The notes beneath the pieces were generated by a model. It did not search any database and was not told the origin of the DNA. It saw only the letters and a program-made list of their open reading frames with translations. DNA of 64,000 nt from Escherichia phage EP01. Location of the stretch: sequence record OM135583.1; one strand, given 5' to 3'. This document shows positions 3,222 to 55,998 of the stretch, one piece after another. Within the stretch, counting starts at the first letter, position 1. Every line of letters starts with the position of its first letter. The translations under genes were made by a program, and so were the position numbers.

Positions 3222-3539
3222 TTATTTCATATTATTGAAATATTCTTCTGCGATTTCATCGTTATCGTGGTAAACTTTAGAAGACAGTTTAACATAACCT
3301 TCAGCAGTGAACATATTAATCACAACTTTTACAGTATACCACTGACCGTCTTCATTACCCATTACTGCGTAAGTTTCAAACATCGGATGGTCAGGACCGA
3401 TGACTTTAATATCATTCACTGTACGACCGAAATCTTCTGAAACGCATTTCATAAAGAAGTTGAACAGTTCGCCGTAATTATCCATTTCATTCTCCAAGTT
3501 GTTTTTCTGTATCAGTAGTTGATAGTTGTATAGTACCAT
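3222..3539 (-). CDS. hypothetical early protein
   Basis: 105 aa ORF; early promoter cassette immediately upstream (3530-3559). Confidence 0.6.
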   Translation of the reverse strand: MVLYNYQLLIQKNNLENEMDNYGELFNFFMKCVSEDFGRTVNDIKVIGPDHPMFETYAVMGNEDGQWYTVKVVINMFTAEGYVKLSSKVYHDNDEIAEEYFNNMK

Positions 3540-3559
3540 GGAAGAACGGGGATGTAAAC
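3530..3559 (-). promoter_or_regulatory. early promoter (TTTACA -35, 17-18 bp spacer, TACTAT -10) inside promoter/stem-loop cassette
   Basis: Plus-strand GTAAAC at 3554-3559 and ATAGTA at 3530-3535; same architecture as the IP-locus cassettes. Confidence 0.6.
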
Positions 3560-4728: not shown

Positions 4729-4802
4729 TCGAGGCAGAAGGATTCTAACCTTCAACCAACGGATTAGAAATCCGTTGCTCTATACAATTGAGCTATGCCT
4801 CG
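4729..4802 (-). tRNA. tRNA-Arg (anticodon UCU)
   Basis: Acceptor stem halves 4730-4736/4796-4802; T-arm 4737-4753; anticodon loop UUUCUAA. Confidence 0.8.
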
Positions 4803-7649: not shown

Positions 7650-7725
7650 TTTATTCTCCTCAGTAGTTGATAGGGTAATAGTATCACAACTAAAACCCTA
7701 TGTAAACAACTTTGTGAAATATTTA
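7650..7725 (-). promoter_or_regulatory. promoter/stem-loop cassette (PeSL-like) with early promoter
   Basis: Repeat copy; -10 7678-7683, -35 7702-7707; ATAGGG/CCCTAT inverted repeat; A/T-rich upstream element. Confidence 0.65.
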
Positions 7726-8013: not shown

Positions 8014-8085
8014 TTTATTTTCCTAATTAATTTTGATGAGATAATAGTATCACTACCTCATCAGCGTGTAAACAACTTTGTGAAA
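8014..8085 (-). promoter_or_regulatory. promoter/stem-loop cassette (PeSL-like) with early promoter
   Basis: Repeat copy upstream of ipI; GATGAG/CTCATC inverted repeat; -10 8044-8049, -35 8068-8073. Confidence 0.65.
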
Positions 8086-38493: not shown

Positions 38494-40059
38494 ATGACTA
38501 TCAAAACTAAAGCTGAACTTTTGAACAAATGGAAGCCATTACTGGAAGGTGAAGGTTTACCGGAAATTGCTAATAGCAAACAAGCGATTATCGCTAAAAT
38601 CTTTGAAAACCAGGAAAAAGATTTCCAGACAGCTCCAGAGTACAAAGACGAAAAAATCGCTCAGGCGTTCGGTTCTTTCTTAACAGAAGCTGAAATCGGT
38701 GGTGACCACGGTTACAATGCTACTAACATCGCTGCAGGTCAGACTTCTGGCGCAGTAACTCAGATTGGCCCAGCTGTTATGGGTATGGTACGTCGTGCTA
38801 TTCCTAACCTGATTGCTTTCGATATTTGCGGTGTTCAGCCGATGAATAGCCCGACCGGTCAGGTATTCGCACTGCGCGCAGTATATGGTAAAGACCCAAT
38901 CGCTTCCGGCGCTAAAGAAGCATTCCACCCAATGTATGGTCCAGATGCAATGTTCTCTGGTCAGGGTGCTGCTAAGAAATTCGCTGCTTTGAAAGCAAGT
39001 GATACTCTTGAAGTTGGAACTATTTACACCCACTTCTTCCAGGACACTGGTACTGTGTATCTGCAAGCTACAGAAGCTAAACAAATTGATTCCGCTGCAT
39101 CTGACGCAGACAAATTAGATGCTGAAATTAAGAAACAAATGGAAGCTGGTGTACTGGTAGAAATCGCTGAAGGTATGGCTACTTCTATCGCTGAACTTCA
39201 GGAAAGTTTCAACGGTTCTACCGATAACCCATGGAATGAAATGGGCTTCCGTATCGATAAACAAGTTATCGAAGCTAAATCTCGCCAGCTGAAAGCTGCT
39301 TACTCTATCGAATTAGCACAAGACCTCCGCGCTGTTCACGGTATGGATGCTGATGCTGAACTGTCTGGTATTCTGGCTACCGAAATCATGCTGGAAATTA
39401 ACCGTGAAGTTGTTGATTGGATTAACTACTCAGCTCAGGTTGGTAAATCTGGTATGACCCTGACTCCAGGTTCTAAAGCTGGTGTATTTGACTTCCAGGA
39501 TCCGATTGATATTCGTGGTGCTCGCTGGGCGGGTGAATCCTTTAAAGCTCTGCTGTTCCAGATTGACAAAGAAGCAGTTGAAATTGCTCGTCAGACCGGT
39601 CGTGGTGAAGGTAACTTCATTATCGCTTCCCGTAACGTAGTTAACGTTCTGGCTTCAGTTGATACTGGCATTTCTTATGCTGCACAGGGTCTGGCCACCG
39701 GCTTTAACACTGATACTACCAAGTCAGTATTTGCTGGTGTTCTGGGTGGTAAATACCGTGTATATATCGACCAGTATGCTAAACAGGATTATTTCACCGT
39801 AGGTTATAAAGGTCCGAACGAAATGGATGCAGGTATTTACTATGCTCCATATGTAGCTCTGACTCCGCTGCGTGGTTCCGATCCGAAGAACTTCCAACCA
39901 GTAATGGGATTCAAAACTCGTTACGGTATCGGTATCAACCCATTTGCAGAATCCGCTGCTCAGGCTCCGGCTTCTCGCATCCAGAGCGGTATGCCTTCTA
40001 TTCTGAATAGCCTTGGTAAAAACGCTTACTTCCGCCGTGTATATGTTAAAGGTATCTAA
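38494..40059 (+). CDS. 23: major capsid protein gp23
   Basis: 521 aa; N-terminus MTIKTKAELLNKWKPLLEGEG matches my recollection of T4 gp23. Confidence 0.97.
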   Translation: MTIKTKAELLNKWKPLLEGEGLPEIANSKQAIIAKIFENQEKDFQTAPEYKDEKIAQAFGSFLTEAEIGGDHGYNATNIAAGQTSGAVTQIGPAVMGMVRRAIPNLIAFDICGVQPMNSPTGQVFALRAVYGKDPIASGAKEAFHPMYGPDAMFSGQGAAKKFAALKASDTLEVGTIYTHFFQDTGTVYLQATEAKQIDSAASDADKLDAEIKKQMEAGVLVEIAEGMATSIAELQESFNGSTDNPWNEMGFRIDKQVIEAKSRQLKAAYSIELAQDLRAVHGMDADAELSGILATEIMLEINREVVDWINYSAQVGKSGMTLTPGSKAGVFDFQDPIDIRGARWAGESFKALLFQIDKEAVEIARQTGRGEGNFIIASRNVVNVLASVDTGISYAAQGLATGFNTDTTKSVFAGVLGGKYRVYIDQYAKQDYFTVGYKGPNEMDAGIYYAPYVALTPLRGSDPKNFQPVMGFKTRYGIGINPFAESAAQAPASRIQSGMPSILNSLGKNAYFRRVYVKGI

Positions 40060-40108
40060 GATATAACCTTATTATGGGAGACTTCGGTCTCCCATTCTTG
40101 TTTCTATA

Positions 40109-40390
40109 CTACGCAATCTTAACTCGACGGTTGATGATGTCACGGAAGTCAATACGATTTTCTTGGATTTTCAGCCAGTTACCAGATTTGTCTTTGGTAT
40201 GGGTAGAATATTCACCGTTCCACCAGAAGTCAGTAGCATAAGCCATGGTTTCATATTTCTTAACTAGGGCATTCACTGCATTACCGTTAGGATTGGAACC
40301 ATATTTTTCTACCAGGGCTTTGATGTCTTTATCAAGAGCGGACAGAGTAGTACGAATAAAGTTTAACTTGTTCATTTTTAATCTCCTCAT
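40109..40390 (-). CDS. hypothetical small early protein inserted between genes 23 and 24
   Basis: 93 aa ORF on the opposite strand to the flanking late genes; driven by its own copy of the early promoter/stem-loop cassette (40406-40435). Confidence 0.6.
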   Translation of the reverse strand: MRRLKMNKLNFIRTTLSALDKDIKALVEKYGSNPNGNAVNALVKKYETMAYATDFWWNGEYSTHTKDKSGNWLKIQENRIDFRDIINRRVKIA

Positions 40391-40405
40391 GTTTTTGATA
40401 GGTCT

Positions 40406-40435
40406 ATAGTAACATGTGATAACCTTGCTGTAAAC
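40406..40435 (-). promoter_or_regulatory. early promoter in a PeSL-like cassette driving the 93-aa ORF
   Basis: TTGATAGGTCTATAGTAAC...GTAAAC; -10 40406-40411, -35 40430-40435; lies between late genes 23 and 24. Confidence 0.6.
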
Positions 40436-40441
40436 AACTTT

Positions 40442-40449
40442 TATAAATA
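40442..40449 (+). promoter_or_regulatory. late promoter TATAAATA (gene 24)
   Basis: Exact box 29 nt upstream of ATG. Confidence 0.7.
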
Positions 40450-40477
40450 AACATATACTCTCAACAAGGAAAGCGCA

Positions 40478-41761
40478 ATGGCTAAAATCAACGAACTTCT
40501 GCGCGAATCAACCACAACGAATAGCAACTCAATCGGTCGCCCAAATCTCGTTGCTTTGACTCGCGCTACCACTAAATTAATATATTCTGACATTGTAGCA
40601 ACGCAAAGAACTAATCAACCTGTTGCTGCTTTTTATGGTATCAAATACCTTAACCCAGATAATGAATTTACATTTAAAACTGGTGCTACTTACGCTGGCG
40701 AAGCTGGATATGTAGACCGAGAACAAATCACAGAATTAACAGAAGAGTCTAAATTAACTCTCAATAAAGGCGATTTATTCAAATATAATAATATCGTTTA
40801 TAAAGTATTAGAAGATACACCATTTGCTACCATTGAAGAAAGCGATTTAGAATTAGCTCTTCAGATTGCAATTGTTCTTTTAAAGGTTCGCCTATTTTCT
40901 GACGCAGCGTCAACAAGCAAATTTGAAAGCTCTGATAGCGAAATTGCTGATGCTAGATTCCAGATTAATAAATGGCAAACCGCAGTTAAATCTCGTAAAC
41001 TTAAAACTGGTATCACAGTTGAATTAGCACAAGATTTAGAAGCAAATGGATTCGATGCTCCTAATTTCTTGGAAGATTTGCTTGCAACTGAAATGGCGGA
41101 TGAAATCAATAAAGATATTCTACAGTCTTTGATTACAGTATCAAAACGCTATAAAGTTACAGGAATTACTGATACCGGATTCATTGATTTGAGTTATGCA
41201 TCTGCACCTGAAGCTGGTCGTTCATTATACCGAATGGTATGTGAAATGGTTTCGCATATCCAAAAAGAATCAACTTATACAGCAACGTTCTGCGTTGCTT
41301 CAGCTCGTGCCGCTGCGATTCTTGCTGCATCAGGTTGGTTAAAACATAAACCAGAAGATGATAAATATCTTTCACAAAATGCCTACGGGTTCTTAGCTAA
41401 TGGTTTACCGCTTTATTGCGATACTAACAGCCCATTAGATTATGTAATCGTTGGCGTGGTAGAAAATATTGGCGAAAAAGAAATTGTTGGATCAATTTTC
41501 TATGCCCCGTATACAGAAGGTCTGGACTTAGATGACCCTGAACATGTAGGTGCATTTAAAGTTGTAGTTGATCCAGAAAGTTTGCAGCCATCTATTGGTT
41601 TATTAGTTAGATATGCTTTATCTGCAAATCCTTACACTGTAGCAAAAGATGAAAAAGAAGCAAGAATAATTGATGGTGGAGACATGGATAAAATGGCGGG
41701 TCGTTCAGATTTGTCTGTTTTATTAGGTGTTAAGCTACCAAAAATTATCGTTGATGAATAA
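40478..41761 (+). CDS. 24: capsid vertex protein gp24
   Basis: 427 aa; late promoter TATAAATA at 40442; terminator downstream. Confidence 0.93.
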   Translation: MAKINELLRESTTTNSNSIGRPNLVALTRATTKLIYSDIVATQRTNQPVAAFYGIKYLNPDNEFTFKTGATYAGEAGYVDREQITELTEESKLTLNKGDLFKYNNIVYKVLEDTPFATIEESDLELALQIAIVLLKVRLFSDAASTSKFESSDSEIADARFQINKWQTAVKSRKLKTGITVELAQDLEANGFDAPNFLEDLLATEMADEINKDILQSLITVSKRYKVTGITDTGFIDLSYASAPEAGRSLYRMVCEMVSHIQKESTYTATFCVASARAAAILAASGWLKHKPEDDKYLSQNAYGFLANGLPLYCDTNSPLDYVIVGVVENIGEKEIVGSIFYAPYTEGLDLDDPEHVGAFKVVVDPESLQPSIGLLVRYALSANPYTVAKDEKEARIIDGGDMDKMAGRSDLSVLLGVKLPKIIVDE

Positions 41762-43373: not shown

Positions 43374-44225
43374 TTATGGATAGGTATAGATGATACCAGT
43401 TTCTAAAGCAGTTTTATGAATGATGTATCCATTGCGCGATTCTTGAACATCAACTTCTGGATAGTCTTTCATCATCTTCTGAAGAGTGTAACGATGCAAG
43501 TAATATTTACTATCTGGGTCGTCAGTTTTCCAATCTTTACCTTCTTCGGTCATTTTTTGGATTTCATCCATAACCCACCAACCGCACCAGATATAAGCTG
43601 AAGTACGATGTGGAAGAGGATGAACATAAGGTAATTCACCTTCTGGTTCTTGAGCAACTTTATCATTCACAGTCAGTGATACTTCATTCGAAGTAACTTC
43701 CTTTGCATCATAATCTGTCGCGGTTACTTGAGCCACACACTTAATTGTTTTAACTCCGCTTGTGGAAGGAGTGTAATTAAATGTAGCGGAAGTTGCTTCA
43801 CTAACAGGAGAATCATCTACATACCATTGATATGTAGCAGATGCGCCTGATGGTTGAGAAGCTAAGGCAGCAGTAAATTGAACTGGGGTTCCAATTACTC
43901 CAGCAGCAGGACTAGCAGGAGTTACAGCTAAGGTAGTTGTCTGTGTCTTATTTTGAACTGTGATAGTTGTAGAAGCTTCTGCTGTTTCAGCATCAGAATC
44001 AGGAATAGTATTTGTTGCAACTACTTTAATAGTCTTTTGACCGGCAGGTCCTTTTAATACATAATCAAAAGTTGCTTCAGCTCCATCTTGTGGAACATTA
44101 TCTACAGTCCAAGCATAGGTAATAGTTCCACCTCCAGTTTCACCACTGGGTGTAGCAGTAAACTGCTGAGTCTGATCTATAACTCCAGTAGGTGTTTTAG
44201 GAGTTATATCAACTGTAAAAGCCAT
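43374..44225 (-). CDS. hoc: highly immunogenic outer capsid protein Hoc (short form)
   Basis: 283 aa; two tandem Ig-like repeats plus conserved C-terminal capsid-binding domain (PYVHPLPHR...GIIYTYP). Confidence 0.85.
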   Translation of the reverse strand: MAFTVDITPKTPTGVIDQTQQFTATPSGETGGGTITYAWTVDNVPQDGAEATFDYVLKGPAGQKTIKVVATNTIPDSDAETAEASTTITVQNKTQTTTLAVTPASPAAGVIGTPVQFTAALASQPSGASATYQWYVDDSPVSEATSATFNYTPSTSGVKTIKCVAQVTATDYDAKEVTSNEVSLTVNDKVAQEPEGELPYVHPLPHRTSAYIWCGWWVMDEIQKMTEEGKDWKTDDPDSKYYLHRYTLQKMMKDYPEVDVQESRNGYIIHKTALETGIIYTYP

Positions 44226-44964: not shown

Positions 44965-45582
44965 ATGTATCACTTTGTATATGAAACGACAAATCTAATA
45001 AATGGTAAAAAGTATATAGGAAAACACTCTACTGATGACTTGAATGATGGCTACCTTGGTTCCGGTAAGGCAATTCAGCAGGCTATAAAGAAATATGGTG
45101 AAAAGAATTTCTCTAGAACAATACTAAAAGAGTTTAAAACTTCCGAAGAAGCGTACATGTATGAAGAAGAAATTATAACTCCTGAACTAATAAAAAGCAA
45201 AAATTATTATAATATGAAACCTGGTGGAATTGGTGGAATTGTTATGACTGCAGAGGTTATAGCAAAGATGAAAGAATCTTCCGCTAAGAGATTTGAAAAC
45301 TCACCGGGCACGGTATTAGGTACAACTTGTTACACCAATGGAACTAAAAATATTTTTATTAAACCCGGAGAACTTGTTCCAGAAGGATTTGTAAAAGGGA
45401 TGGTTCATCTTAATAGAAAGTCCAGAAAAGGATGTAAAGTCAAACCGACTACCACAGGAACTTTTTGGGTCAATAATGGAGCAATAAATAAATTAATACA
45501 ACCAGACGGTATTATTCCCGATGGATTTATTAAAGGTCGTCTCATGAAAAGAGACTCTAAAGGCAAATTTAGTAAGGCATAA
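44965..45582 (+). CDS. segE: GIY-YIG homing endonuclease (SegE-like)
   Basis: 205 aa; GIY-YIG module (YHFVYETTNLINGKKYIGKH); position upstream of uvsW. Confidence 0.8.
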   Translation: MYHFVYETTNLINGKKYIGKHSTDDLNDGYLGSGKAIQQAIKKYGEKNFSRTILKEFKTSEEAYMYEEEIITPELIKSKNYYNMKPGGIGGIVMTAEVIAKMKESSAKRFENSPGTVLGTTCYTNGTKNIFIKPGELVPEGFVKGMVHLNRKSRKGCKVKPTTTGTFWVNNGAINKLIQPDGIIPDGFIKGRLMKRDSKGKFSKA

Positions 45583-55938: not shown

Positions 55939-55998
55939 TTTGTGTTCCTCATGTTATGTCAGTAAGATTATTATAACACAACACGAGGGACTTGTAAA

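Follow-up and report, generated by a model that had tools for sequence, protein, structure and literature searches.

We analysed a stretch of 64,000 nucleotides from Escherichia phage EP01 (record OM135583.1), referred to below as the window, with positions counted from its first letter. The window belongs to Tequatrovirus, the genus in which G28, identical to it around the locus described here, is classified. Genes 23 and 24, for the major capsid protein and the capsid vertex protein, are separated here by a spacer of 418 bases (40060-40477). The 701 bases around this locus were 100% identical to those of vB_EcoM-G28, GEP001, KIT06 and HZ_ZJUN4, and the mosaic of the window recurs at 99.9-100% identity in at least seven isolates (eight records if the RefSeq entry of G28 is included). 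The following features were found in and beside the spacer:

38494-40059, plus strand: gene 23, major capsid protein, 521 aa (Pfam Gp23, E 1.4e-121)
40074-40095, plus strand: GC-rich hairpin GGGAGAC-UUCG-GUCUCCC, the terminator of gene 23 (terminator scan)
40109-40375, minus strand: gene for an 88-aa protein (MNKLNF...RRVKIA) with its stop codon at 40109-40111 (ORF list, PHROG 6003)
40376-40390, minus strand: translation initiation region, with Shine-Dalgarno sequence GAGGAG at 40388-40383 and a 7-nt spacer to the ATG at 40375
40406-40435, minus strand: T4-type early (sigma-70) promoter, with G-TTTACA at 40435-40429, a 17-nt spacer, TG at 40414-40413 and TACTAT at 40411-40406 (promoter scan)
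40442-40449, plus strand: late promoter of gene 24, TATAAATA, recognised by sequence and unchanged in every phage aligned, T2 and T4 among them
40478-41761, plus strand: gene 24, capsid vertex protein, 427 aa (Pfam Gp23 family, E 2.4e-97)

An earlier note on this DNA had described a minus-strand ORF of 93 aa between genes 23 and 24. An open frame was indeed found there, at 40109-40390, but its length had to be corrected to 88 aa. The in-frame ATG at 40390, which gives the 93-aa version (MRRLKMNKLNF...), overlaps the GAGGAG Shine-Dalgarno sequence and is only ~9 nt away from the transcription start, which is predicted near 40399 with a leader of ~24 nt. In all homologous loci GGAG was found 7-9 nt ahead of the ATG, every homologue starts with the Met equivalent to ATG 40375, and GenBank records carry a 267-nt version of the ORF. 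Because of this Shine-Dalgarno spacing, the homologue starts and the 267-nt annotations, translation almost certainly begins at ATG 40375 and not at ATG 40390.

The encoded protein has a mass of 10.3 kDa and a pI of 9.6, a value that is approximately kept in all alleles. It matches PHROG 6003 along its whole length (hmmscan E 5.8e-50, residues 1-88 on profile positions 1-88 of 90), and is 98.9% identical to JS98 orf173 (tblastn) and 34-38% identical to the Mosigvirus-type homologue. Using tblastn we found the protein in 237 phage records, and more than 200 genomes of related phages already list the family as a hypothetical protein. The dN/dS ratio was 0.03 against JS98, 0.09 against SQ17 and 0.13 against VR26, and residues M1, K3, F6, G31, N32, N35 and Q71 are invariant in family members down to 30% identity. 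AlphaFold2 returned a model with pLDDT 94.1 and pTM 0.80, from an alignment of only 16 sequences, in which helix 3-25 and helix 31-48 are followed by a beta hairpin (52-61/67-71) and a final helix (77-87). A BFVD model of a 40%-identical homologue, computed independently, superposed on it at TM 0.90. Low dN/dS, the confident fold and a conserved promoter and Shine-Dalgarno sequence together mark the ORF as a bona fide protein gene under purifying selection. An apparent swap of the C-terminal 16 residues in many carriers (tblastn coverage 1-72) was traced to BLAST filtering; the translated loci show intact C-termini.

The early-type promoter claimed previously was found as TTTACA-17-TACTAT with TG. 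It has the marks of T4-type early promoters, namely the -35 hexamer, the 17-nt spacing, a TAnnAT -10 with TGn and an AT-rich upstream region; the late promoter TATAAATA lies back-to-back with it and provides the AT-rich stretch upstream of its -35. We aligned the upstream regions of ten loci (the window, JS98, IME08, SQ17, VR26, Yersinia phage P8, JS09, two metagenomic contigs and T4 segD). The -35 was kept in all ten, as TTTACA in nine and as TGTACA in one contig, and so were the exact 17-nt spacing and a -10 of the form TAYTAT or CATAAT, with the TGn extension present in 8/10. The sequence of the spacer was free to vary. Constant hexamers and spacing around a variable spacer are the footprint expected of a working sigma-70 promoter. 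Within the window the pattern TTTACA-N17-TAYWAT occurred five times, always on the minus strand and always with TGn. The chance expectation is 0.23, which makes for a ~20-fold enrichment, and none of 100 shuffles reached five, suggesting that this pattern is the early-promoter class of the phage. In the window the promoter spacer is GCAAGGTTATCACATGT, which contains only a 6-nt palindrome, and no stem-loop was found in or adjoining the promoter. The allele of SQ17 and JK45 has a short inverted repeat within the promoter spacer.

The same promoter bears on segD, the gene that the earlier note had placed between genes 23 and 24 of T4. We confirmed that segD occupies this slot, also on the minus strand, and found that it lies behind a homologous promoter (TTTACA-17-TATTAT with TGn). 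The antisense position within a late operon, which had been pointed out for the window ORF, is thus real but no peculiarity of the ORF. T4 segD RNA has been classed as early and SegD protein has been detected by mass spectrometry (PMC9697503 supplement). A review from 2010 found no segD-specific promoter and supposed read-through from promoters upstream of rnlB/24.2 (PMC2988022). Such upstream read-through could alternatively be the source of the early class of segD RNA. Judged by its sequence, the conserved early promoter can account for early expression of T4 segD, and would be a simple explanation for it.

The occupants of the slot in related phages were as follows:

T4: segD alone, on the minus strand
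T2 and most Tequatroviruses: 83 bp of spacer containing nothing but the hairpin and late promoter, without an early promoter
Dhakaviruses (JS98), Gapriverviruses (VR26), Mosigviruses (JS09), Yersinia phage P8 and metagenomic T4-like contigs: the PHROG 6003 ORF in the same place and orientation
IME08, and JK45 on a Mosigvirus-type backbone: the ORF, 3 nt, then segD
Erwinia phage Gravdalen: segD immediately downstream of the homologous early promoter, with the ORF absent

SQ17 and two metagenome contigs share the slot and the antisense orientation as well. The earlier note had staked its reading on T4 and its relatives lacking the ORF: T4 does lack it, but it occurs in this slot in relatives from three sister genera and in at least seven isolates of Tequatrovirus. 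Several copies are truncated or frameshifted, with products of 41 aa in RB69, 51 aa in mogra and 64 aa in 310Ecol104PP, the last being a frameshifted copy at 95.5% identity. Because T2 and T4 lack the gene and the copies of RB69, 310Ecol104PP and mogra are broken, we infer that it is dispensable.

We then compared the origins of the spacer and its flanks by sliding identity and informative sites. Gene 23 was 95-100% identical in DNA to T2/T4 and 60-93% to JS98, and gene 24 was 91-100% identical to T2/T4. Both are of Tequatrovirus type, except for the final ~28 nt of gene 23. The stretch from 40074 to 40424 is 92-100% identical to JS98, while its flanks are 95-100% T2/T4-like and 51-93% JS98-like. 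Informative sites put the left junction at approximately 40026-40032, within the ten codons that close gene 23, and the right junction at approximately 40459-40466, between the late promoter and the ribosome-binding site of gene 24. This defined one further feature:

40032-40459, no strand assigned: apparently imported Dhakavirus (JS98)-type patch of ~430 bp, which takes in the final codons of gene 23, its terminator hairpin, the ORF with its early promoter, and the gene 24 late promoter

A JS98-like patch between T2/T4-like flanks argues for import from another genus. Its probable donor is a Dhakavirus without segD, homologous recombination having run through the conserved ends of the two genes. 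For the slot as a whole, the gene may have entered an empty site, or it may have been kept in its carriers and lost from other phages; in the window it is the mosaic identity that argues for import. Replacements of this kind were also seen elsewhere. In the Mosigvirus SQ17 a resident 34%-identical allele has been replaced, a second time and independently, by a Dhaka-type allele, and in JK45 a Dhaka-type allele together with segD has likewise replaced the resident Mosigvirus allele.

The window ORF itself is unrelated to segD, as the earlier note had held. BLASTP against T4 SegD gave E 2.8, and no Pfam GIY-YIG domain was detected in the ORF, whereas a segE-like ORF of the window, used as a positive control, did match GIY-YIG. 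The description of the locus as an endonuclease-free allele with its own small gene is supported. In IME08 and JK45 segD lacks a ribosome-binding site of its own and starts 3 nt past the ORF stop, so it is apparently translationally coupled to the ORF. The SegD of these phages is 56% identical to that of T4, and ~38 records hold a SegD at least 80% identical to that of IME08.

This arrangement raises the possibility that the ORF is the cargo of a segD homing cassette, which arrived by SegD-initiated gene conversion (co-conversion), segD then being lost or not co-converted. IME08 and ~38 other records, with segD on the same strand and immediately behind the ORF, speak for it. So does JK45, whose flanks are 97-100% identical to JS09 while its ORF+segD unit is 89-99% identical to IME08; Mosigvirus flanks around a Dhaka-type pair imply that ORF and segD move between genera as one block. 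SQ17, moreover, has the JK45-type ORF allele and promoter without segD. For the window, however, the suggestion that a segD cassette had brought the module found no support: the DNA from the ORF stop to the hairpin matches segD-less JS98 at 34/34 positions and contains no remnant of segD. segD is missing from most of the 237 carriers, and T4 and Erwinia phage Gravdalen carry segD without the ORF. T4 SegD reportedly does not drive homing of its own gene, as Sokolov et al. are said to have found in 2018. By analogy, ORF plus segD would be the usual layout in which a free-standing endonuclease gene has lodged behind a resident gene, which fits segD parasitising the expression of the ORF and not the reverse. 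On balance we consider transport by segD improbable. The distribution points instead to the ORF and segD being independent tenants of one conserved antisense early transcription unit.

We next considered the transcript. The ORF stop is 13 nt short of the hairpin at 40074-40095, which is also annotated as a terminator in phage G28. Read on the minus strand, the same hairpin is the 3' end structure of the ORF transcript, but no U-tract follows it there. Termination of the ORF transcript is therefore uncertain, and early minus-strand transcription probably continues in part past the hairpin into antisense gene 23. The antisense early RNA might then be the functional product, modulating late capsid expression by read-through past a weak hairpin, with the ORF incidental. 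The unit is antisense to genes 23 and 24, its hairpin has no U-tract on this strand, and the same promoter is kept with the ORF, with ORF and segD, or with segD alone, all of which would suit such a role. It is hard to reconcile with strong purifying selection on the protein and its confident compact fold, with homologues that are sense-oriented in arrays of unrelated phages with no capsid gene near, and with T2-type phages that are without the promoter altogether. The minus-strand transcript folded no better than ordinary (z -0.85), with the hairpin as its only stable element and no Rfam match, and a structured RNA was rejected. We regard a regulatory RNA as very unlikely.

A role in head morphogenesis, for instance in tuning gp23/gp24 assembly, would explain the strict synteny of the ORF between genes 23 and 24 in four T-even genera, and the Dhaka- and Gapriverviruses that carry the ORF also have duplicated gp24 genes. 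Yet the ORF is found in single-gp24 Mosigviruses and in the Tequatrovirus of the window too, and it is absent from T2 and T4, which build the same heads. It lies on the opposite strand, behind an early and not a late promoter, with no TATAAATA on its own strand, and its distant homologues are not beside head genes; we give this role a very small probability. Finally, although the ORF is short, antisense to a late gene cluster and of no function known to the databases, the idea that it is a chance open frame in an AT-rich spacer and no real gene deserves practically no credence and is refuted by the comparative data (dN/dS 0.03-0.13, invariant residues kept in homologues down to 30-38% identity, AF2 pLDDT 94, conserved promoter and Shine-Dalgarno sequence).

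Searches for function returned little. Pfam gave DUF5380 alone, below the cut-off (E 0.085, 5/16 members), and NCBIfam a chance match alone (E 0.019, 13 bits against a cut-off of 600). PADLOC had no match among defence systems, and neither PADLOC nor NCBIfam matched the protein to a described defence or anti-defence family. The best E value was 0.75 in a PDB profile search, Foldseek against PDB gave nothing under E 1.7, and a literature search for RB69ORF188c found no match. A profile search of 1.84 billion representatives produced 9-11 weak repeat matches in each of two large proteins, P0022 (1347 aa) and P0024 (3916 aa). The repeats of P0022 are tandem copies of ~95 residues, rich in Thr, Ala and Val, whereas the part of the model that they matched is a helix plus a beta hairpin. 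We judged these matches to be compositional and spurious.

Distant homologues outside T4-type phages (E 1e-12 to 1e-34) were more informative. Several were found in long same-strand arrays of small unannotated ORFs, on contigs of 35-141 kb from unrelated myoviruses. One such array includes a T7 gp0.6-like gene, and one homologue contig resembles 145-kb Serratia/Acinetobacter myoviruses. Another homologue is found in a siphovirus related to Serratia phages, with the tail-tip gene on one side and the replication genes on the other. By analogy, small-ORF arrays would be a habitat of early host-takeover or counter-defence genes, not of capsid genes. From this setting, together with its dispensability, its early-type promoter and its uniformly basic pI, we rate a host-directed accessory factor as an even prospect. 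Counter-defence specifically is possible, though rather unlikely, and that the protein binds a host protein or nucleic acid stoichiometrically is our best guess.

Taken together, these results make it reasonably probable that the locus is a self-contained early 'moron'-type cassette, imported into the variable 23/24 slot, whose product may be a dispensable early host-directed factor. The cassette would consist of the early promoter, the 88-aa gene and the hairpin common to gene 23, and it would have entered when the genome recombined with a Dhakavirus lacking segD, with homology arms provided by the conserved gene 23 3' end and the gene 24 leader. At the start of infection host sigma-70 RNA polymerase would fire GTTTACA-17-TGtTACTAT, giving a short mRNA with a leader of ~24 nt, antisense to the head genes. 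The protein would be translated from ATG 40375, and the transcript would be stabilised or partly terminated at the hairpin common to gene 23. Late transcription of genes 23 and 24 would take over later. Much more tentatively, the basic 10-kDa protein, with its predicted helix-helix-beta hairpin-helix fold, might bind a host macromolecule for host takeover or counter-defence, and might serve early infection as a dispensable accessory factor, as opposed to forming part of the capsid or working with SegD.

We compared this imported cassette with known systems. It is close to JS98 orf173 (EpJS98_gp173)/RB69ORF188c/PHROG 6003, with which the window ORF shares the family, the slot, the antisense orientation and the promoter architecture. 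Unlike in JS98 and RB69, the backbone around the window copy is that of a Tequatrovirus, and members of this genus normally leave the slot empty or fill it with segD; at 88 aa the window copy also contrasts with the 41-aa fragment that is RB69's own copy. T4 segD likewise occupies this slot on the minus strand, back-to-back with the gene 24 late promoter and behind the homologous promoter at a similar distance from the start codon. The window ORF differs from it in having 88 aa instead of 223 aa, no similarity and no GIY-YIG. As phages of the IME08/JK45 type hold the ORF and segD in tandem, the two are not alternatives of one gene.

The PeSL and ORFan cassettes of RB49 and phi1, the source of the PeSL definition (Arbiol et al. 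2010, PMC2839356), resemble the window unit in several respects: an ORFan of small size under a strong sigma-70-like early promoter of its own, AT-rich sequence upstream, patchy occurrence among close relatives and transcriptional insulation by a stem-loop. The window has, in contrast, a single promoter and only the hairpin at the 3' end, which is common to gene 23, and its exchange points lie in conserved gene 23/24 coding and leader sequence, not in promoter repeats. The term 'PeSL-like' used earlier holds loosely, for the early promoter and its AT-rich upstream region; it does not extend to a promoter stem-loop or a flanking PeSL pair, both absent here, nor to the junctions, which fall among the final codons of gene 23 and within the gene 24 leader. 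Lambdoid morons offer a further parallel, as an autonomous promoter, gene and stem-loop between two late structural genes, dispensable and patchy. The differences are that the phage here is virulent, that expression is predicted to be early lytic and not from a prophage, that the unit is antisense to its neighbours, and that it appears to have been gained by homologous patch recombination, not illegitimate insertion.

The gene is thus real, conserved and already annotated, an uncharacterised early ORFan in a slot known as variable, and the locus appears to be fairly ordinary phage accessory-gene shuffling. We are doubtful of a bolder version, in which a new-fold early effector for counter-defence or host takeover, its Dhakavirus allele positively selected, is spreading across T-even genera, filling a vacant Tequatrovirus slot in the window and ousting the 34%-identical resident in the Mosigviruses SQ17 and JK45, with segD sometimes as a passenger, and the 23/24 slot is a conserved 'antisense early expression site' whose promoter explains T4 segD expression. 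Should the protein prove to act on the host, the T-even accessory factors would gain a family with a new fold, and a natural series of phages (T2 empty, T4 with segD, G28 with the ORF, IME08 with both) would serve as isogenic-like controls; otherwise it is one more ORFan among hundreds in T4-type genomes. The inter-genus patch, bounded by the ends of the two capsid genes, matters for the use of genes 23 and 24 as phylogenetic markers.

We found that segD, the homing endonuclease gene that fills the slot between genes 23 and 24 in T4, is itself preceded, at a distance of roughly 20-29 nt from the start codons, by a well-formed early-type promoter:

L005 (T4, NC_000866) 4735-4800, about 107234-107299 of the record, minus strand: segD early-type promoter, TTTACA-17 nt-TGa-TATTAT.

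This promoter and that of the window ORF, the early-type gene in the same slot, occupy homologous positions. Erwinia phage Gravdalen has kept the T4 segD-type promoter as well. According to a review from 2010, a segD-specific promoter could not be found (PMC2988022); in omics data, segD RNA was classed as early and SegD protein was detected (PMC9697503 supplement). Elsewhere in the window, four further perfect matches to TTTACA-N17-TAYWAT, the pattern of the early-promoter class, were located, which presumably serve as early promoters for the adjoining minus-strand genes:

3530-3558, minus strand: perfect match with TGn extended -10.
7678-7706, minus strand: perfect match with TGn extended -10.
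8044-8072, minus strand: perfect match with TGn extended -10.
55970-55998, minus strand: perfect match with TGn extended -10.

The allele of the ORF found in phages SQ17 (L009) and JK45 (L021) holds a short inverted repeat in the 17-nt promoter spacer, which in SQ17 reads CACAA...TTGTG and gives a small stem-loop between -35 and -10. The SQ17/JK45 promoter is thus nearer to a true PeSL, an early promoter with a stem-loop within, overlapping or adjoining it, than is the promoter in the window. Shigella phage JK45 (NC_054940) is labelled Tequatrovirus in the NCBI taxonomy. Its genes 23 and 24 shared 97-100% identity with those of Mosigvirus JS09, against only 82-98% with those of T4. Gene 23 of JK45 includes a single short T4-like tract, at positions 448-747 when counted along the aligned segment, and the 23/24 slot contains a Dhakavirus-type pair of ORF and segD. 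JK45 is either mosaic or mislabelled.

Downstream of the slot, two tandem gp24 paralogues (24a and 24b, about 426 aa each) were found in Dhaka-type, Gapriver-type and metagenomic T4-like loci (L001, L004, L008, L010, L013 and L015), whereas Tequatro- and Mosigviruses have a single gp24. One of these loci, L013, a 173-kb metagenomic T4-like contig, encodes a 90-aa member of the window-ORF family (P0017, 3501-3773), whose JGI name, 'NADPH-dependent curcumin reductase CurA', is clearly a mis-annotation. Two giant repeat proteins in the representative library, P0022 (1347 aa) and P0024 (3916 aa), matched the family profile with E values of 1e-15 and 9e-8. These scores arise from 9-11 weak repeat matches, and both proteins were judged spurious, compositional hits; the repeats were read in P0022 alone, where units of about 95 residues, with a high content of Thr, Ala and Val, follow one another in tandem.

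Two other genes in the window were examined:

43374-44225, minus strand: 283-aa ORF in the place of hoc, giving a single weak PKD-domain match.
44965-45582, plus strand: segE-like GIY-YIG homing endonuclease gene between inh and uvsW.

Since Hoc is 376 aa in T4 and 472 aa in phage G28, which is otherwise near-identical to the window, the sequence is distinct from that of G28, and the head-decoration protein encoded here appears to have fewer Ig-like domains. The segE-like gene is placed as segE is in T4, so the phage carries seg genes despite having no segD.
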